A DNA stretch of 64,000 bases, taken from the NCBI GenBank assembly GCA_951406725.2, contig OX597834.1, forward strand, positions 29,760,001 through 29,824,000, written 5' to 3'. The first letter of the stretch is position 1; each line of letters opens with the position of its first letter. The stretch is from Octopus vulgaris. Lineage: Eukaryota. The position numbers and the translations under genes were made by a program. Shown here one piece after another: positions 508-57,545 of this stretch. Below the pieces are notes generated by a model. That model made no database searches. It saw only the letters and a program-made list of their open reading frames with translations, and was not told the origin of the DNA.

Positions 508-777
508 CGCCAAGTAAGTTAAGTGTTGTGGATCCAACCCACTAAGGGATAATACTTATCCAATATAATGTTGGTATAATACCCAAATTATTAATACCCA
601 AGTGTTTTTAATTGTAATGGAATAAACTTTCTTATTGTATTAAATGGGTGAAGGTAAAGAAATATTATACCATTAATTTATATTACAAATAAGAAAAATG
701 AAGAAACAATTCAGTTGGTTTATCAGTTTTAGGATAAATATAGATAAATATAAGTTATGTTTTGTATTGCTAAATAG

Positions 778-935
778 ATCACAAGTATGGTTGAGTGGTA
801 AGAAGTTCGCTTCCCAACCCCATAGCTCAGGGTTCAGTCCCATTGTAAAGCACCTTGTCTCTCCTACTGTAGCCCCGAGTAGATCAAAGCCCTGCAAGTG
901 GACTCCATAGATGGAAACTGAAAGAAGCTTGTCAT
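778..935 (+). mobile_element. SINE family B, degenerate 5' half
   Basis: GGTTCAGTCCCA B box and GATGGAAACTGAAAGAAGC motif shared with full copies; a 3' part appears to resume near 1490-1600. Confidence 0.7.
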
Positions 936-1060
936 ACATATATATATATATATATATATGTATATATTAATAAATAATGTAGGATAAAATTTTTTTCGGG
1001 GAAAAAATTTTTATCAATGGCCAGCATATCAAAAAATACCTTTAAAGGTTAAATTTATAA

Positions 1061-1281
1061 ATAATTTACAAGATAAGGGCAAAAGAAAAATTCTAATGCC
1101 AAATGAAAATTTATTATTAATTAACCCCTAAATTCGACCAATGCGGTAATAACGAATTTTTTAGAGATTTCTATCAGTTTGTTTTGAGACGCATAAATTA
1201 TAATGGTTATTGAAAAGTTTTGTCTTTTTTACGGCATATTTGGCACTAGAATTTTTCTTTTGCCCTTATCTTGTAAATTAT
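1061..1281. repeat. 44-bp inverted repeat (1061-1104 / 1238-1281) within a (TA)n-flanked cassette
   Basis: ATAATTTACAAGATAAGGGCAAAAGAAAAATTCTA.TGCCAAAT and its reverse complement, 1 mismatch. Confidence 0.85.
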
Positions 1282-1679
1282 GTGTATATATATATATATA
1301 TATTACTGTGTTATAAGTCTGCTACTTATATAAATTAAGATTAAAAGTTCATAGTAAACACGTAAACATGGCTACTCATACGCCTACATGTGTGCTCGCG
1401 GACCCACGTGCGTACTTATACATCACTATGAAAACGTGCACATCTTCACTCGCATTTTTCACCAAATATATATATATATATATTCCAATGTCTGTGTATC
1501 TTTGTTGGTTTGTTTATGTCCCATTAACTTAGGGTTTGGCAAAATGAGAGTGACAGAATAAATATCAGGCTTCAATATTAAATATGTACTGCAGCTGATT
1601 TGTTTCATATATTCGATATGATTCGTTATTTACTAGTTTCAGCTTGAGAGCTGGAGCCATATGATATACATATATATAC

Positions 1680-2173
1680 CTTTTTCTTTTGCTTCTTTTA
1701 GTCATTGGATTGCAGCCATGCTGGAGCACTTGAAGGGTTTAGTAAAAATAATTGACCCCATTTCTTATTTTTTAAGCCTGATACTTATTTTACCAGTCTC
1801 TTGTGCTGAATTGCTAAGTCATGGGAATGTAAACAAACCAATACCAGTTGTCAAGCAGTGGTGGAAGACAAACAAAAACACATGTTTACCAGCACAGCTT
1901 CCATGACTTTCAGAAACATTTTTTCACGCTGAGAGTTTCTGAAGCATGGAACAGACTACTGGCATCAATCGTTAGTTGTTGGAGCACTTCATCCTTCAAA
2001 ACTTCCATGCTTCCTGAGATTCGCCAACACAACACCTGATTCCCCCCACCCTCCATACAAGCATGTATCTGACTCATACACTGTTTGCTTTCCAGACATT
2101 TATACATTACTGCATATGCTTTATATGCACTTTTGACAAGTTGTGGTGCACCTGAGCACTGTATACAATAATT

Positions 2174-2223
<50 letters not shown>

Positions 2224-2320
2224 CACATAGATAGGCTTCTTTCAGTTTCCATCTGCCACTCACAATACTTTGGTCAGTCCAGGGCCAAAGACACTTGCCC
2301 AAGGTACCACTCAGCCATGC
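1680..2320 (-). mobile_element. SINE family B (old), interrupted by a CR1-like LINE 3' end
   Basis: GCCATGCTGGAGCAC tail at ~1715 and GGCTTCTTTCAGTTTCC...CACTTGCCCAAGG head part at 2234-2310. Confidence 0.75.
1885..2222 (+). mobile_element. CR1-clade LINE 3' fragment (ORF2 C-terminus, 3' UTR, (ATT)n tail)
   Basis: QKHFFTLRVSEAWNRLLASIVSCWSTSSFK fits the CR1 ORF2 C-terminal motif (HFF..RV...WN.LP..VV......FK); stop at 2039; (ATT)n 2177-2221. Confidence 0.8.
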
Positions 2321-3477
2321 ATATAGATAGATAGATACATAGATAGGTAGACACATACATACAGACATAGAGGCATGCATATATGCATACATACACATTT
2401 TTGTGTTTATATATATATATAAACGTGTGTGTGTGTGTGTGTGAATGCACACATCCATATAGAGATATCATGTTAGCACATACATTTGTGCTTATGTCTA
2501 AATATGTACACATATACATACAGTGGATCTATGTATGTGCGCGCAGAAAGGCTTTCACTCATATAAATGCATATACACCCCAGTGTATGTGTGTATATAT
2601 GTATATATATATATATATATACTTTTTGCCATTTGCCATTCTTGAGAAACAGCATGTATAAATAAAAATAATAGAGATGAAACACTTTGACCCCGATTAG
2701 GTCTAACTAATGATTTATGATGATTGCTTGGAAGGAAAAGAGGGAAAAAAATACCAAGTTCAATTCGAAACAAAGAAACACTAAGAACACAACAAAGAAA
2801 GATAGAAGAGGAAAAGGTGCTAATTGTTGCTGGATTTTTATTGGTTCAAAACCAATTTGAAACTGTGACAAACCTTCGCAACAGAATCATTTCTCATTGA
2901 AAACCACTTTCTTCTACCCTTGGTAATGTGTCACCAGAGAAATCTCTATGACACAGAGCAACATCCGACTCCAATGTCTCACCTTCTTTCATTCGTATAA
3001 CACAGGCAAAACTTTGCCGTACTTCACTTCTTATTCATGCCATCAACACCATACCAGCTGCTGCTCTCTGGTTGGTACCACCAGCCACCATTATTGTCCT
3101 TCAAACATCTGTGTAGAAAAGAGATGGCCATCATAACAATACAACATACTGCCTTTGTGGTTAGCCCCACCACCAAAAAAAAAAAATCCCTAGAAACCTT
3201 TCATTCTCTCTCTCTAGCTCTCTCTCTCTCACTCTCACTCATACACACTATCTATCCAATTATCTATCTGTCTGTCTATTTATCTATTTAGCTGTTTGTC
3301 TTTCTATCTACATCTATCTATCTCTATTTCTATCTATATATCTATCTCTATACATTTCTGTTTATATATCTTCCTATCTGTCATCTATCTATCCTTCCAT
3401 CTGTCTATATATCTATCTCTTTGTCCCTCTTTTTCTCTCATTCACAATCTCCCTATATCTCTTTGTGTCTCTGACTG

Positions 3478-3517
<40 letters not shown>

Positions 3518-4145
3518 CTTCTCTTTCTCTCTCCAATCTGGTCACCTTCATTTTTTACACTGACTTTACAATGACCATGTGTCACTTTGACAAGGTGTGA
3601 TTTCTTCCCTCTTATATTCTTGTTTATTTCCATTATTTTTCTATTTCCTTTCTCTTTTTTTCTGTTAGGTTTTGGTTGGTGATTCCAAATGCTTTTATTT
3701 TTCTATTATTTATCTTTTGCATTCACATTCTTTCCTGTTGTTTTTCTACCATATTTCTGTTGTTTATCTCATGTATTTTGTCAGTTTTTTTCTGTTATCT
3801 TTTCTGTTTTTTATAGATCTAAATTGCACTGATGCTGTTTTTGTATTCTGTTTCGGTGCTGTCTTTTCATTTCTTTAATATTATTTCATTAGATTTCTAT
3901 TTGGCTTCTTTTTCCCTAATTCTATATTTCTGCTAATGCATTTTCCCAATCCCATATACAACCCTTCCTTGGCGACTAATAAAAGTTGATGATTGGAAAG
4001 GCATCCAAAAATGGCTGAAAAAAACTCATCCAACCCATGCCAACCTGGAAAAACTTATGTAAAATGCTGTTGATGATGATGATGATGATGATGATGCACT
4101 GTTTCAACTGTATTGCTCCTTATTTCTGTTTTATTGATTCTAATA

Positions 4146-16034: not shown

Positions 16035-17564
16035 TATATCAGACAACACGCTTAGTGGTATTTCTTCTGACTCATTACGTTCTGAGTTCAAATCCCACCA
16101 AGTTCAACTTTACCTTTCATTTTTTCAGGGTCAATGAAACAAGTACCAGTCAAATACTGGGGTCAGTGTAATAGACTTACCCCCCTCACACACACCCCAC
16201 CCCACCTCAAATTTCAGTGATTGTACCTAGAGCGGAAAGGATTATTAAAGTTGTTGTTTTTGTTACTGCCATTATTGTTGTTGTTTCATTGTCATTGTTA
16301 TTACTATTGTTGGTGTTGTTGTTATTATGGCTGTCATTGTTGTTATTGTTCTTATTGTTATTGTTGTTATTATGACTGTCATTGTTGCTAATATTGTTTC
16401 ATTGCTGTTGACATTATTGTCATTGCTGTCAACGTTGTTGTCCTCGTTATCATTTCTAATGAGACTTTATTTTCACTCTGCTGACCTAAAAATTTTGTTG
16501 CCATATTTTAATTTATTCGATTCTTTTTCTGTAAAACATTACATTTTTACATTGTTTATTGTCCACATTGTTTATTTCAGCTGAAATAGTCACACTGCAA
16601 CATATACTTGTACTCCAGCTGGGACTGAACTCAAACATGTTTCTGTAAAACATATCAAACATGACTACTGATGTAGGCTAAACTCTTATAAATATTGAAA
16701 AAAAAAATACACAACTAAGGTGGTGTTCCAGCATGACCACAACCAAATGACTATTTATGCTATGGTGGGATAGGAAACTTAAAGAGAAATTAGCAGAGAG
16801 CTCCATAAACCTAACCAAGTACTCCTGCTACGTGGATGATATCAGTATAGTAGCCAAAGCCCTACAAGATAATGGTGATGATCTAGAAGCTAACACTATG
16901 GAGAGCATGCAGCAAATAGCTAACTTCATCCACCAGAGTATAGAAATAATGATAGACTACCCTAGTAAGCACCCTAACTATAGATTACCTATTTTTAGAC
17001 ACCGAACTCTGGTTAGAAATGAAGAATGGTAAGGTCCAGATCCTTCACTCTCATTATGCCAAACCCATGGCCTCTAAGTACCTTGTTCACAAGAAAGCAG
17101 TGATTGCAAACAATACCAAGTTCAACATTCTGATAGCTGACTTGGTGAGAGTGATGGGGATGTGTCTTGCATGTGGGACCCTATGGAACTGGATAGACAC
17201 ATACAATACTACATCCACCACATGCAGTTATATGGCTACAACCAAAGGGACAAGATTAGAATGTACAAAGATGCAAGTACAAAGGTATCATAGAGAGTGA
17301 TGCTAAAGGGATCTGCTCGTTGTACAGGAGTAAACCCTGGAACAGCAGGAAAAGGACCAGTAATAAGATAAATAAGGCCAACACTTGGTATGACAACAAA
17401 AAATACCAGAGTGTCATTTCGTTGATGCTACCCTTGGCAGCAAACTAGCACATCTTTTTAGAAAAACATTAAGTAAGGCTAATCTACAAATTAAAGTAGT
17501 AGGGAGGCCTGGTGCCCCATCAAAATCTCTTATTTGTAGTACCTATCCCTTTGATAAGTCCTAT

Positions 17565-18016
17565 CATCATCGTTTAATGTCCGTTCTCCATGCTAGCATG
17601 GGTTGGACAGTTCGACCAGGGATCTGGGAAGCCAGAAGGCTGCACCAGGCTCCAGTCTGATCTGGCAGTGTTTCTACAGCTGGATGCCCTTCCTAACGCC
17701 AACCACTCCGTGAGCGTAGTGGGTGCTTTTTACGTGCCACCTGCACAGTTGCTAGGCAAGGCTGGCAACGGCCATGATCGGATTGGTGCATTTTACGTGC
17801 CACCAGCAGAGGGATCACAACTGCAGTTTCCATTGATTTTGATATTGGTGTACTTGACTCAATGGATCTCCTCAAGCACAGGGTCGAAATGGTGTTTCTT
17901 CACTTGCCACCTGCACAGGAGTAGTCCAGCAGTCCTGGCAACTGCCGGGTGCCAGTCATAGGATTGGTTCCATTTCGATTCCGATTTCACTTGCTCCAAC
18001 AGGTCTTCGCAAGCAG
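17565..18016 (-). mobile_element. RTE-type (TGA)n-tailed retroposon (family C), 5'-truncated
   Basis: CATCATCGTTTAA.GTCCG...CTACAGCTGGATGCCCTTCCTAACGCCAACC shared with 55638, 57232, 28742; flanked by 163-bp direct repeat; RTE assignment is inference. Confidence 0.8.
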
Positions 18017-25647: not shown

Positions 25648-26600
25648 TAGGGTGCAGTGAATAAATTGTTGTCTAAATTATGCAAAAATGAAAATAACAC
25701 TGACATCTCATTTTAACAGATATATTTACCAAAATTACATAAAAATATCTTTGAATACTAAAGAGTAAATTTATTCAATAAAATCGCCATTGGCTTCAAC
25801 CATGGCCTCCAGACCACTTTGGAATCTTCTGCAACTCTTCTGGATGGTCTCCTTCTTTAAGTTAGTGAATGCTGTCATAATCCTTGCCTTCAGTTCATCT
25901 TTGCTGTTACAAGGGAGTTTTGTTGGTCTCTCACTCGACTGCACCCCACACATAATAATCAAGTAGGTTGCATTCTGGGGAGTTAGGGATGATGTGGTCA
26001 CTGAAATTATTTGAGAACCATGACTGAGTTCTCCTGCTTGTGTTGCATGGTGCAGAGTCTTGTTGCCAGAAATAGTGTCTTCCAGCAGCCACTCTCTTGA
26101 CCCAGAGCAGCACTTGCTCCTCCAGCCACTTGGCATACAGTGTTGAGTTTGAGGTCATGCAGGAAGATGTATGTAGACATAACTAGTGATGTTGACTGGA
26201 TGTTTGATTTTTATCACTCTCGGTACGTTTTGTGAATACGGTACGTCAATGGTTGGTCTGTGTGTTCACCATCTGACCCTGGCAGAAATTTTTTCTCGTT
26301 TGAGAGAAAAAAAAGTATGTTCAGTTGGAAAGGATGCTTGAGTTTGTTCAAAAACTTCCTAGTATGGTAGTTCTTCTTGTCCTTGATGGCTTGGGGTAAA
26401 AATTGGCCCTTTCTCATCTTGTATGAGGAATACCAAATGTCTTCATGCACTACGTGCCTGATAAGAAACTCAGACACTCCCATGTCCCTGGTAATGGATC
26501 TGATTGACTTGAAGGTATCATTGTCAATCATGGCCTGAATCTCACCAACAAATTCAGGAGTTCTTTTCTTATCAGAGCAATCAGAGTGAGTTAAAACCCT
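25648..26600 (-). pseudogene. Tc1/mariner DD37D-like transposase remnant with one terminal repeat
   Basis: FLSNEKKF, WQQDSAPCNTSRRTQSW, PNSPECNLLDYYVWGAVE, ...VEANGDFIE*; frameshifted; end TAGGGTG at 25648. Confidence 0.9.
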
Positions 26601-27152
26601 GAGGGATTGCCAGAACAGCAACTGGATAATTCCATATCATCTTCCTTCCACAGATCCTGCTTGTTGATGTTCCAAAAATGACCAGAAGATTTCAAAAGGA
26701 AATAATCACCGAGTCGATGCCAAGGGATCAAATTTGAGTTTAGGGATCTCTCGGGAGTCTCAGTTCCTTTTTATAACCTACCATCACCACCACCACTACC
26801 GACACCACCGCCGCCACCAAGAACTACATCAATGAGCAATTACTGATGTGTTGTAAATAAGTGTAACAACCGGTGATATGCAAATTATCCAAATCTGCAC
26901 CCATTAAGTCATCTCCAATGAAAAAGGAGGAGAGAAGAGGAGGAGAGAAGAGGAGGAGTAGGAGGAGGAGGAGGAAGTAGATGCAACAGAAGTAAGAATG
27001 AAACATAAAAGGACAACAAACAAGATATGGGCATTAAAATTTCATATTTTCATTGTCACCGTAACCATTATTTTCATCAATTTTAATCATCATCAGCAGC
27101 ATTATTGTAATCACCTTAAGCATATTCATCATCAATGCCATTCTCATCATCG

Positions 27153-46260: not shown

Positions 46261-46450
46261 CTTCCACTATAATTCAGTGAATAAGTAGTTCCATTAAATG
46301 AACAAGAAAACCCGTGATTGAAACCAATGCAAGACCCCTTTTTGTGAATCCCACAATGACACTTGGCAAAGCAGTTATTGTGAGGGCATTTATTTGTTAC
46401 CATGTATTTTGAGTTTCGTATGGATTGATTTTCAAATAAATTTTAGTACC

Positions 46451-46680
46451 TATTTCTTTACTACCCACAAGAGGCTAAACACAGAGAGGACAAACAAGGA
46501 CAGACAAAGGGATTAAGTCGATTGCATCGACCCCAGTGCGTAACTGGTACTTAATTTATCGACCCCGAAAGGATGAAAGGCAAAGTCGACCTCGGCGGAA
46601 TTTGAACTCGGAACGTAACGACAGACAAAATACGGCTACGCATTTCGCCCAGCGTGCTAACGGTTCTGCCAGCTTGCCGC
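46451..46680 (-). mobile_element. SINE A, full length
   Basis: Reverse complement of family consensus. Confidence 0.93.
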
Positions 46681-49860: not shown

Positions 49861-51706
49861 TGAATTTTTATCAATGGAATAAAATTGTAGAGTCATCATT
49901 TGGTTCACATATGGAAAGTTATATAAATTGATGGTTGAACATTTAATTCTTCCATAAGCTAGGATCAACAAGGAGATAGCCAATATGAAGAAGAAATCAA
50001 GTGCTTATTAGAATTATTGAGTATTTGGAAGATAAAGTTTATATGGTATAACACAGTGTACAACATTGGTGTAAAAACTGGTTGTGAAAAATATTTCTCA
50101 ATTGGTCTTTAACTACAGATTTCGGTCAAACTAAATGATTTGACCTAGATTTCTGCCCCACTGACTTTCGATGATCATAACTTTCAGAAAAATGGATATT
50201 TTTTAATGAAATTTTATACGAATATGTGTCATGTAGATTCCGAATATACAAAATTTGGTGGGGGGAGTGTTTTAGGAGGAGGTGAGGTGGGGAATTTTGG
50301 AAAATTCACTGGAGTCCCCTTCAATTCCTCATAACTTTCAAGAAAATAGATATTTTTTATTGAAATTTTCTACAAGTATACCTCAGATTATGTAGATTCT
50401 GAGGAAATAGAAATTTGTTGGAGGGTGGGACATTCAGAGGCTATTTTTGAGAACTGTTCTCCACCTGGGAACAAATCGTCCATATTTGTTTCATTTTATC
50501 TGTTTTGTGCGTTTGTGCATCCATATATTTCTACTCAAGCAGCTGGCAATGAAGTTGTCACCAGAAAACTCGTATTGCTAAAAATAACAGCTAAACGTCT
50601 AAACGTTTCTAACAGAAGGGCATTGAATGGAATAATTCCCCGTTTCAACTTTTTTTAATCACATATGTGTTTGTGAGTGTGTGAGAGGACACTGAGAATA
50701 AGTATGCCACCCCTTTGTCCTTTTTTTTTCTCTCTCTCCGTTTTGACAAGGATTTTTCAAATTTCATTTTACACTCAGGTCTTCCAGCTGATGTGGGTCG
50801 TGGGGGACATTTTAGGAAAAAAATTTTTTTTTAAATTTATGATTTTTTTTTCACCTCATCCCCATGCACTTAAAAACCATGAGAGAAGCTTTTTCGGTAC
50901 TCCTTTATATCACACACCTTTTCTTACGAAAAATTATTTTTTAACCGTAAAAGGCTTCTCCCATCGTTTTTAAGTGCTTACGACAGGAAAAAAAGAAAAA
51001 AATTGGCCAAAATTTCTTCAGTCTGGATTAGGGGTAAAGAGGAGAAAGGAGGGAGGGGAAAAAAGTTAGACCCTGGTGAAAAAGGAATTCGAGAAATCAC
51101 CGTCAAAACGGAGATTTCGGATCCAAAAACTCTGCCAATACTGAAATTAGTCATTACTCATTTTGCCCCTATTTAGACATAATTTTCTGAAAATGAAAAA
51201 TTATCAAATTAGACATTAATGTGCAAAAATATAACAATTGACATGGAATGCAACAGAGAAAAGGATAGAAATTGTTAAACAGCAAAAATTTGAATCATTT
51301 TTGATTTGCAACTTCAATTACAATCGAGTCGAACGAAGTTGAGGAAAAATGTCTTGAAAGAAAAGTAACACTCTCCATAGTAATTTCAAATGTTTGAGCA
51401 ATTGGAATTGTACAAAATGACGAAAAATATAGACGGAAGAAAGAAAGCAAAAAGTTTCGATTTTATGAAAAACATTGCAAGATATGTGCATTTATAACTA
51501 AAGCTAAATTCAAAATTTACATTCAAGAATATTTCTTACTTACTTGTTCGTTCGTTCGTGAAGACCAGTTTTCGCTGCATCAGAGAAATAATAAAGTCTA
51601 CAAGGGTCAATATATGTGGGTGTGTTTGGCCCTTTAATTCCAGGATCAAGGGTCAAATTATGCATTGTTAAAACAAAATTGGGTTCCTTTCTGTTAAACT
51701 ATTTCT

Positions 51707-53321
51707 TCAAGCTACAAAATGAAAATCTAATAATATTTGCGAAAAAGGGAAAAAAATATTTAGTGTATGTTGTATTCTGATCTTATAAAATGTGTATTGT
51801 TCTGCAATTTGAACAAGATGTTCAAATTTTCTCCTGGGGTACCTCTTCCACCACATAAACTCGATTAAATTTTGAGGGAACAACTTGGAAAAGGTACCAG
51901 AAGTTTGTCGATATTTGCACTTAGCATACACGCCCACATGGTTTCCACATGGTTTGTGTGGACACCTTTGGTTTCATCTGAAGAGCAAGATGGGGTTGGG
52001 GAGGAAGACCCCTGCCACCGAGTGAATACGAAAAACGATGGAAGGATGTGATGAGAAAGGTGGGTGTGAGAAACCCAGCTTAATCATCGAAGAAAGGAAA
52101 AATTAGTTGTTGGGCCTTCTGGGCTACCGGGTTCAAATTTTGAACCTGCAATTTTTTCCCTTTTTTCCCCCTTTTTACCATGTTATGTTCTCTAGTTTTA
52201 TTTTTAAAAAATACAAAAGTTCTCGTTGTAAAGGCAAAAGTAAACCAATTATTCGTTTAAAGGCAAAAGCAAGCCAAGGTTTCGTTTATTTCATATTATA
52301 ATTAAATTTTTAAAAGTCTCATTCGAACTCTTGTAACATTTTTGTATTTGTCTGTCTTGTTATGTCCTTTTCTATGTTAGATCTCATGATCATAATAAAG
52401 ATTTGCGAAATGCGTTGCCGTATTTCGTCTGCCGTTACATTCTGAGTTCAAATTCCGCCGAGGTCGACTTTGCCTTTCATCCTTTGGGGGTCGATAAATT
52501 AAGTACCAGTTACGCACTGGGGTCGATGTAATCGACTTAATCCGTTTGTCTGTCCTTGTTTGTACCCTCTGTGTATAGCCCCTTATGGGCAGTAACGAAA
52601 TGAATAAAGATTTTACCTTCGGTTTCATCAACAAATGATATAGAATGGAAACCTAGATTTTGCAAAATACGGTACACCGCCCATTCGTCGGTAAAAATTA
52701 TATTACATGGATGGACATGTTGCTGGCTAATGGATTCCAAAGGATCCATGGACCGGCTATTATCCGGCCACTCTGGAAGGAAGCAGTTCATGGGATTGTC
52801 CAATGAAATCCCACCCAACACTCGAATGCCGTCGTAGTGCGCGCCCCGCCGGTTTTTTTCCGGTGCAGAAATTACGATCCGTAAATGGCGACCAGGACAC
52901 CAGTACCGCCAATCGTTACCGGATTGTTAATAATGTTTTCTGCTAAAACGTCTCGGCAGAAATTAGCCAAATACCACCACAGTGGACCAACTTGCAATAT
53001 TAAGTTCACGCATCATTGATTTTACTGGTTCCTCAATGGACCCCCAATACAGAATCTGCAGTATTATACCTAAAGAGAGGTGGCCATTAGAGAAAAACGA
53101 TCTGTTTCTAATGGAGTAGCTCTTCCGACATCGCCGAGAGCAGTGCACTTCCAAGTATATCCATCTCGATGCTGCGATGATTTAACTAAGGAAAAATTGC
53201 GGCCACATTCACAGACATGAGCTTGAGCTAAAAGCCCATATATTTTTCACCAGTCAATTAGCCCGCCATGGTCAGTGCATATTCGAATAATGTCTGATAA
53301 GTGAAATGGAGGATGGTGCAT
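51707..53321 (-). pseudogene. Merlin / IS1595 (ISXO2-like) DDE transposase pseudogene
   Basis: ATG 53321; CECG...DGYTWKC...CRKSYSIRNRSFF, ANFCRDV...IGGTGVLVAIYGS* (VEIDES site mutated), VLGGI, IIFTDEWAVY, FVDETEG / [21 protein letters not shown]; stops, frameshifts and an insertion. Confidence 0.9.
52404..52600 (+). mobile_element. SINE A, 5'-truncated, inside the transposase insertion
   Basis: Family match; flanked by AATAA(A)GATTT. Confidence 0.9.
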
Positions 53322-55602
53322 GATATCGACGTTAGAATTCAAAAATGGGAAGCAGGACAAAAGATGATGATGGTTTCAATCAAAAATGAGAAGAGAATAA
53401 AAGCTGGACAACAGAAGCTGATGGTTTCAGTTCGAAATTCCTGCAGAATAAACTTTAAAACCGGATAAAATTGTTGATAATTGATCAGTCATTCTTTGCA
53501 GAAATCCCTAAACCCCCATGTAAATGGTAAATGATTTTGGAACTTTCTGTCTAAGAACTCCTGCAGGACCATTGTCCGTCCTTCAGCACGGACAAACTTT
53601 AATCGAGTTTATGTGGTGGAAGAGGTAACCCAGGAGAAAATTTGAACATCTTGTTCAAATTGCAGAACAATACACATTTTAAAAAATCAAAACATAACAT
53701 ACACTAAATGTTTTTATTCTTTTTCGCAAATATTATTAGATTTTCATTTTGTAGCGTGAAGAAATAGTTTAACAGAAAGAAACTCAATTTTCTTTTTACA
53801 ATGCATAATTTGACCATTGACCCTGGAATTAAAGGGCCAAACACACCCACATATATTGACCCTTGTAAACTTTATTATTTCTCTGATGCAGCGAAAACTG
53901 GTCTTCACGAACGAACGAACATGTAAGTAAGAAATGTTCTTAAAATGTAAATTTTGAATTTAGCTTTAGTTATAAATGCACATATCTTGAAATGCTTTTC
54001 ATTAAATCGAAACTTTTTCTATCTTTCTTCCGTCTATATTTTTCGTCATTTTGTACAATTCCAATTGCTCAAACATTTGAAATTACTATGGAGAGTGTAC
54101 TTTTCTTTCAAGACATTTTTCCTCAACTTCGTTCGACTCGATTGTAATTGAAGTTGCAAATCAAAAATTATTCAAATTTTTGCCGTTTAACAATTCCTAT
54201 CCTTTTCTCTGTTGCATTCCATGACAACTGTTATATTTTTGCACATTAATGTCTAATTTGATAATTTTCCATTTTCAGAAAATTATGTCTAAACTGGGGC
54301 AAAATGAGTAATGACTAATTTCAGTATTGGCAGTGTTTTTGGATCTGAAATCTCTGTTTTGACGGTGATTTTTCGAATTTCTTTTTCACCAGGGTCTAAC
54401 TTTTTTTCCCCTCCCTCCTTTCTCCTCTTTACTCCCATCCAGACCGAAGAAATTTCGGCCATTTTTTTCTTTTTTCCTGCCGTAAGCACTTAAAAACGAT
54501 GGGAGAAGCCTTTACGGTTAGAAAAAAAACAAATTTTTCGCAAGAAAAGGTGTGTGATATAAAGGAGTACCGAAAAAGCTTCTCTCGTGGTTTTTAAGTG
54601 CATGGGGATGAGGTGAAAAAAAAATCATAAATTTTCAAAAAAAAATTTTCATAAAATGTCCCCCCACGACCACCACATCAGCTGGAAGACCTGAGTGAAA
54701 AATGAAATTAGAAAAATCCTTGTCAAAACGGAGAGAGAGAGGGGAGGAAAGCACAAAGGGGTGGCGTGCTTATTCTCAGTGTCCTCACACACACACACAA
54801 ACACATATATATGTGATTTTTAAAAAAATTGAAACGGGGAATTATTCCATTCAGTGCCCTTCTGTTAGAAATGTTTAGACGTTTAGCTGGTATTTCTAGC
54901 ATAACGAGTTTTCTGATGACAACTTCATTGCCAGCTGCTTGAGTAGAAATATATGGATGCACAAACGCACTAAACAGAGAAAATGAAACAAATATGGACG
55001 ATTTGTTCCCAGGTGGAGAACAGTTCTCAAAAATAGACCCCCCTGAATGTCCCCCCCACCCCCACCCCACAAAATTTCTATGTCCTCAGAATCTCTATAG
55101 TCCGAGGTATACTTGTAGAAAATTTCAATAAAAAAATATCTATTTTCTTGAAAGTTATGAAGAATTGAAGTGGACTCCGGTGAATTTTCTGAAATTCCTC
55201 ACCTCAGCTCCTCCTAAAACACTCCCCCCCCAAAAAATAATTTTGTATATCCGGAATCTACATGACACATATTCGTATAAAATTTCCTTAAAAAATATCC
55301 ATTTTTCTGAAAGTTATGATCATCGAAAGTCCGTGGAGCAGAAATCTGTAGTTATGCTGGATGGTTAATGTCGTTGAGGACTACAATATAAAAAGATTAC
55401 CAGTTATTTTCTACTCTCTCCACACTTTTTCACTTCTGCACATTGGTCATGTGACAGTCTGCCATATCTCAGCATTAGCACATCTACATCTGCTCCGAAA
55501 TCCAGGCTGTTTAGTCCAAAAGATTGCTTGATTAAAACAATTAAATGCAACACATTCATATTTAGGTGCATACATACACACATCCATCCATACATACATA
55601 CA

Positions 55603-55637
<35 letters not shown>

Positions 55638-55639
<2 letters not shown>

Positions 55640-55811
55640 TCATCATCATCATCATCATCATCATCGTTTAACGTCCGTTTTCCGCGCTTGCACGGGTTGG
55701 ACGGTTCGACCGGGGTCTGGGAAGCCAGGGGCTGCACCAGGCTCCGGTCTGATCTGGCAGAGTTTCTACAGCTGGATGCCCTTCCTAACGCCAACCACTC
55801 CGCGAGTGTAG
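55638..55811 (-). mobile_element. Family C RTE-type 3' end, CpG-intact (young)
   Basis: (CAT)n tail plus conserved family motifs. Confidence 0.8.
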
Positions 55812-55900
55812 TATATATGTATATATATATATATATGCATGTACCGTTGGCGATTTTTTTTTCCTCTGTCTTCCCTTCTCTGGATCTTTCCTTCTCCTAT

Positions 55901-56610: not shown

Positions 56611-57231
56611 GTATACATATATATGTATATATATATATGTATACATATATATGTATATATATATATATACATATATATGTATACATATATATAGGTATAC
56701 ATATGTAAATATTTGTGTGTATATACACATTATGTGTATATGTATGCATACAAGTAAATTCATATTTGTATAAACACAGACACACACATATGTATACACA
56801 CTCACACTGAATGCCAAGAATAACATTTAGAGCAATCTACACAATGTCTCTCCTCCTCCCTCCCCCCATTATGCTGTCTGTATGTTTTCTGAGAAGGACA
56901 TTGAACTAGGCAAGGCTGGGGGTGTGGGGAGAGTCAAGGTGTAGAGATCTTGGTGGGGAGGGGTAAGTCGATGAAGATAATAGCAACACATTGAATGGTA
57001 AAGTGGTTCTATTCTGAGATGTGATGTGATGGTTGTGATAATGAAGACGATGGCAGCTGTTATTAATAAGGATGTGATGGTGGCGTAAGTGCTTAAAATG
57101 ATGTTAGCAGAAGGTGCTTATGTAATTAATGTCAATAGAGGTTGATAGTGTGGTGTTTGTGGTCATGAAAGTCCAGGTGATGGTGGGCTAATCTATTTTC
57201 CAGTCAATTTTATGTAAATCTTCATCATCAG

Positions 57232-57545
57232 CATCATCATCATCATCGTTTAACGTCCGTTCTCCATGCTAGCATGGGTTGGACGGTTCTGGGATCCGGG
57301 GATCTGGGAAGCCAGAAGGCTGCACCAGGCTCCAGTCTTATCTGGCAATGTTTCTACAGCTGGATGCCCTTTCCTAACGCCAACCACTCCGTGAGTGTAG
57401 TGGGTGCTTTTTACGTGCCACCCGCACAGGTGCCAGGCGAGGCTGGCAACGGCCACGGTCAGATTGGTGCATTTTACGTGCCACTGGCACGGAAGCCAGT
57501 CGAGGCGGCACTGGCTTCGGCCACGATTCAGATGGTTCTTTTTAC
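57232..57545 (-). mobile_element. Family C RTE-type retroposon
   Basis: Colinear with 17565-17810. Confidence 0.8.

Follow-up and report, generated by a model that had tools for sequence, protein, structure and literature searches.

According to the available excerpts of PMC3443670, an insertion into an AGGT site doubles this tetranucleotide into a splice donor and an acceptor, and non-LTR elements make up about 5% of the classified introners in those of PMC12130899. SINEs share 3' tails with their partner LINEs in the excerpts of PMC4494074 and PMC4824008, and the former also describes L1/Tx1 insertions in DNA transposons, such as Xenopus Tx1 in Tx1D and crocodilian Tx1 together with SINEU in Mariner-N4_AMi. 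Merlin/IS1595-like transposons are characterized by a PF12762 transposase and flanking inverted repeats (excerpts of PMC8101967), and both Merlin and L1-Tx1 families are annotated in Octopus vulgaris in Table 1 of PMC13282606, as far as that source was available. The literature search on octopus and introners yielded nothing on octopus in the excerpts returned, its match dealing with gammarids.

The window analyzed here is a 64,000-nt stretch of O. vulgaris contig OX597834.1, an AT-rich piece of eukaryotic DNA with many microsatellites, in which a Merlin-type transposase pseudogene is interrupted by an insert (Table 1). As the best explanation, held at a probability of roughly 0.72, we propose that the insert is a dispersed repeat between two copies of a 15-base target, likely the 3' end of a 5'-truncated L1/Tx1-like LINE, into which a SINE probably inserted afterwards and which likely never was an intron.

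Table 1. Features in and around the interrupted transposase (positions are those of the window)
Feature	Position	Strand	Remarks
Host element, first long inverted repeat arm, with the last ~29 transposase codons	50147..51874	+	blastn 92% with gaps to 53593-55347
Transposase pseudogene, 3' part (Merlin/ISXO2-like)	51788..51963	-	44/58 identical to P0002
Lower 15-nt duplicate	51964..51978	-	51978 is the G of the predicted CAG acceptor; a second AG ends at 51966
Insert part 1, purine-rich (70% A+G), coding-like	51979..52106	+	128 nt, ends at TAG 52104-52106
Insert part 2, T-rich (42% T), 3'-UTR-like	52107..52404	+	ends with AATAAA; last ~57 nt like the SINE tail
Left copy of the SINE 11-nt duplication, AATAAAGATTT	52394..52404	+	
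SINE, 5'-truncated, same orientation as the retroelement tail	52405..52602	+	92-94% identical to 5/5 fuller window copies compared
Right copy of the SINE 11-nt duplication	52603..52613	+	followed by one T (52614)
Upper 15-nt duplicate	52615..52629	-	predicted GT donor at its end (52616-52615)
Transposase pseudogene, 5' part	52630..53333	-	118/188 identical to P0009, 88/157 to P0003
Host element, second long inverted repeat arm	53593..55347	-	blastn pair of 50147-51874

The closest named relatives of the interrupted gene are ISXO2-like transposase proteins of Octopus bimaculoides, to which the pseudogene is 63-76% identical. The domain PF12762 (DDE_Tnp_IS1595) fell short of the cut-off on the window transposase fragment (E=0.004) and was found in close relatives at E=1.4e-17 and 3.6e-20. 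A frameshift-aware alignment, run separately for each flank of the insert, revealed two stops (53247, 52872) and three frameshifts (near 53137, 52968, and 52861) ahead of the predicted donor, as well as one frameshift near 51929 after the predicted acceptor, which makes two stops and four frameshifts, i.e., six lesions outside the insert. Moreover, the IDES motif, presumably the carrier of the first catalytic aspartate, reads IYGS in the pseudogene and is followed by a stop. The host transposase is broken on both sides of the insert, so that even perfect splicing would yield no protein and rescue nothing today.

The alignment of the two inverted arms comprises 1633 identities and 80 mismatches, and the C-terminal transposase peptide is present in both arms (tblastn). 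With a length of about 1.73 kb, these arms are far above the 24-462 bp given for Merlin and contain the 3' end of the gene, and it may be that an inverted copy of the element's own 3' end replaces its 5' end. No duplication of 6-10 nt was found at the candidate ends scanned, nor the terminal GG typical of Merlin TIRs, the true ends of the host element being uncertain. Near ~50110-50153, the arm seems to be a few bases longer and is broken by an imperfect palindrome of ~23 nt (GGTCAAA...TTTGACC), which sits between two AGATTTC copies and is missing from the other arm. A hairpin in each arm (50865-50978, 54480-54607) gave weak matches to miRNA families below their gathering scores, and two 51-nt direct repeats (73%) lie at 53350-53451, immediately upstream of the transposase start. 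Elsewhere in the window, two open stretches at 25774-26636 on the minus strand resemble what is left of a Tc1/mariner transposase.

The first-pass annotation had reported a 15-nt direct repeat with one mismatch as an AGGT-containing target duplication around an insert of ~640 bp in the transposase. On the minus strand, the repeat reads GATGAAACCGAAGGT at 52629-52615 and GATGAAACCAAAGGT at 51978-51964, identical at 14 of 15 positions and with AGGT inside the duplicates, and 636 nt lie between the two copies at the homology break, in agreement with that description. A 15-nt repeat by itself is not rare in the window, where ten pairs of 15-mers that are not of low complexity and differ at one position at most lie 300-1000 nt apart, the 51964/52615 pair included. 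It is regarded as a real target duplication because it brackets the exact break of the transposase homology, which ends at the upper duplicate and restarts after the lower one.

The comparison of family copies, which had been proposed as a check, showed that five of the six relatives spanning the insertion site read through it (P0002, P0004, P0005, P0008, and P0009; these are predicted proteins, not DNA), and a 14-residue stretch across the site is the same or a one-letter variant in all five. P0001 is devoid of 34 residues after the site, and P0003 stops earlier. The gap of P0001 starts at the same position between G and GT, as if the gene predictor had taken the native site for a donor. As to the assembly, a contig of set X2 (organism label B) spans the 382 letters of 52566-52947, 9 of which differ, and crosses the SINE-side junction by 49 letters, and a contig of set X1 (organism label A) crosses the other junction by 26 letters, which is below the 31-letter bar. 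Owing to these contigs across the junctions, the insertion is not an assembly artefact, and it is probably common to the two organism labels. Contig joints were absent from this insertion site among the 15 listed of 404, which thus included no empty site in DNA, as were loose ends from the outer insert junctions among the 23 listed of 1073. One X1 contig starts at 51975 with seven letters left over, four letters into the lower duplicate, as microhomology would give, which is a weak hint.

The insert is oriented opposite to the transposase and, read on the plus strand, consists of three parts. The first carries an open frame of 33 codons, overlapped by one that ends at the TAG, and might represent the C-terminus of a LINE ORF2 in which small indels have interrupted the frame. 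As a weak hint, some contigs are one base short at 51999, 52009, or 52012, and their frame would be longer. A phmmer search with the 33-aa frame gave one match, to an unrelated-looking repetitive protein (E=5.8e-4), and no LINE protein, while Atlas, word, and PDB searches with the 5' frame of the insert (~40 codons available) gave nothing usable on ORF2 homology. As well, the DNA patterns of the insert had no match in viral, metagenome, or prokaryote collections. The second part, about 300 nt long, ends in AATAAAGATTT, and the third is formed by the 198-nt SINE, a second AATAAAGATTT, and one T. Terminal inverted repeats were not found in the insert (best local scores 5 and 4), and a poly(A) tail is absent from it, as AATAAA is there, but the sense strand ends in TTTT.

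Summed contig word depth, taken from the public sets X1 and X2, is no copy number, and the contrast between regions alone was used. At 51988-52109, it amounted to 7306 and 23795 in X1 and to 9367 and 19395 in X2, making part 1 of the insert the region of highest non-SINE contig depth; it falls at about 52110, with values of 624-3918 at 52110-52353, and ranges between 49 and 597 over 11 transposase bins at 52659-53300 (X1, X2). Dispersed copies of the insert, a search for which had been suggested together with its discovery, are reflected in a depth far above that of the transposase, which marks the insert as a dispersed repeat. A unique filler sequence is ruled out by the same depth. Contig set X19, presumed to come from RNA, showed zero depth across the transposase flanks, which says nothing about expression or splicing, and the raw-read run X22 contributed 24 reads, none of them 95% alike. 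The step at ~52110 meets the TAG and the change from purine-rich to T-rich sequence, and would fit a coding end common to subfamilies with differing 3' UTRs.

The nested SINE, which may belong to the octopus tRNA-derived CORE SINEs OR1/OR2, is without the head, of which fuller copies carry 24-32 further letters in the aligned window. Its own 11-nt duplication is perfect, and we infer, as had been proposed earlier, that the SINE struck the insert later, an order of events that we regard as likely. Flanking repeats of 11-19 nt accompany three of five other SINE copies, and the duplications of 15 and 11 nt belong to this size class too. A further interspersed repeat family of the window, with a (CAT)n head and copies 88-91% alike, was observed at 55629-55812, 57211-57401, and 17563-17720.

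The last ~57 nt of the insert proper (52346-52402) are co-terminal with the tails of all five fuller SINEs, sharing 41-43 identities (~74%) with each; the scores of 42-53 are each above the maximum of 300 shuffles. When 3752 window tiles were compared with the insert tail, SINE tails took four of the top five places, the third being held by an unrelated low-complexity tile. The nested SINE copy scored 44 against the insert tail, under its shuffle maximum of 46. The likeness between the two tails, which lies in T-rich sequence, may be rated as modest. One SINE tail so compared is located at 46448-46515 on the minus strand. Folding of the shared tail gave z values from -0.04 to -1.08 and no conserved structure, and the 14 Rfam matches were all far under the gathering score, with no tRNA or SINE match among them.

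The splice signals described in the first-pass annotation, a donor GTAAAA after GAAG and the acceptor context TCTTGCTCTTCAG, are both present, and both predicted splices are in frame on paper, yielding the two peptides given there. From the GT at 52616, splicing to the CAG ending at 51978 would remove 639 nt and splicing to the AAG ending at 51966 would remove 651 nt, both multiples of three, and the latter would restore the original exactly. Pyrimidines occupy 13 of the 17 positions before the CAG and 9 of 17 before the AAG. Because the CAG has the better tract and the AAG follows 12 nt behind it, the CAG splice would be the likelier of the two, and it would add four residues just before the HTNHVE motif. 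Neither dinucleotide is given by the insert alone, as the donor GT lies entirely within the duplicated target, and the lower duplicate begins with the G of the acceptor CAG.

As a null, this insert was placed, together with a duplication of 15 nt, at each of 865 sites of the transposase, which produced an exact AG/GT splice at 52 sites and an in-frame GTR..YAG at 56, both types at 30, and either type at 78. For this insert, a spliceable look is thus expected by chance at 3.5-9% of sites. Given this rate and a genome that consists of LINEs to about 13% and of SINEs to 12% (available part of PMC13282606), splice-like insertions must be common in it. Rather than marking a newborn intron, the in-frame signals probably arose by coincidence from the duplicated target.

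A reading missed in the first pass, namely the tail of a retroelement in antisense orientation, suits the insert better. We infer that the tail of a 5'-truncated LINE, presumably Tx1-like, was integrated antisense into the Merlin-type transposase by target-primed reverse transcription, and that the SINE would then have inserted into the LINE tail, making its own 11-nt duplication. Since the target already held AGGT, any duplication would double it and create the look of a donor and an acceptor, and the antisense of a purine-rich coding end would be pyrimidine-rich and supply the look of an acceptor tract, so that the splice-like appearance may follow from these two properties.

The locus had instead been taken as a snapshot of introner-like intron creation, in which the duplicated AGGT and the pyrimidine tract of the insert gave rise to a spliced intron while the transposase still worked, the gene decaying later. 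Such a mechanism is in print (PMC3443670), some introners are non-LTR elements (PMC12130899, both in their available excerpts), and the in-frame splices are joined by a donor and an acceptor context that are fair. However, the gene carries six further lesions and is now defunct to either side of the insert, the look is expected by chance at the several-percent rate given above, the exact acceptor lies behind a better one with its four extra residues and has the poorer tract, and a single locus is concerned, with nothing pointing to intron formation by this family at other places; real intron gain is thus unsupported and quite improbable. An even longer shot is that an octopus LINE, the partner of the dominant SINE, acts as a retro-introner, with its antisense coding end as the pyrimidine tract and the doubled AGGT as both splice sites, and that this copy was spliced from a then-active Merlin transposase. 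As a side observation with higher odds, the insert might be a candidate partner LINE mobilizing the abundant octopus SINE.

Another kind of retrotransposed repeat, either a non-autonomous or older SINE-like family with a SINE tail or a LINE-SINE chimera made by template switching in one event, is doubtful without being far-fetched, and would be consistent with the tail in common with the SINE, the missing protein match and poly(A), and a 5'-truncated SINE that adjoins the tail in the same orientation; template-switch chimeras are also on record (excerpts of PMC4494074). The perfect 11-nt repeat around the SINE favors a separate insertion, however, and the drop in depth at the stop codon points to a coding end. 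This alternative alters the label of the insert and leaves the verdict on splicing as it is. An event at the DNA level, whether a MITE or DNA transposon or break-repair filler with a staggered-cut duplication, is very improbable, as the insert shows no terminal inverted repeats, by which a MITE is ruled out, and, being a dispersed repeat, has polarity as well as a tail like that of the SINE, even though it is textbook background that repair of a staggered break can leave a 15-nt duplication. Finally, P0001 is shortened after the site as a gene model using the predicted GT would be, which could be expected if the insert were an ancient intron of the transposase family flanked by a chance repeat. 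This has practically no chance of being true, because five of the six spanning relatives (predicted proteins) are contiguous across the site, which rules such an intron out, and what the repeat doubles is coding sequence located precisely at the break.

Compared with the L1/Tx1 insertions of PMC4494074, as far as its excerpts go, the nested retroelement of the preferred reading likewise has a tail lying in a DNA transposon, a duplication of ~15 nt without terminal repeats, a 3' tail shared with a SINE, and an adjoining nested SINE, but the host is of the Merlin type, the clade is putative, and a poly(A) tail is absent, for which reason the insert is classed as LINE-like with its clade left open. 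The SINE itself, an abundant interspersed repeat of ~235 nt, resembles by description the OR1/OR2 CORE SINEs named in the excerpts of PMC4824008 and PMC4758252. In terms of the host element, the PF12762 transposase and the flanking inverted repeats are those of Merlin/IS1595-like transposons, from which the long arms and the failure to find a terminal GG or a duplication of 8-9 bp set it apart (excerpts of PMC8101967). As in AGGT protosplice intron gain and in introners (excerpts of PMC3443670 and PMC12130899), a mobile repeat lies between duplicated AGGT copies that would act as donor and acceptor, in frame on paper; unlike these, the host is a pseudogene with no working frame, one locus is involved, neither dinucleotide belongs to the insert only, and the splice sites are predicted.

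Our verdict is that the whole locus is ordinary nested transposon debris. It carries a caution, namely that at several percent of sites, a duplicated target bearing AGGT takes on the look of a new intron. Should splicing be true after all, the locus would represent a dated birth of an intron from an antisense retroelement.
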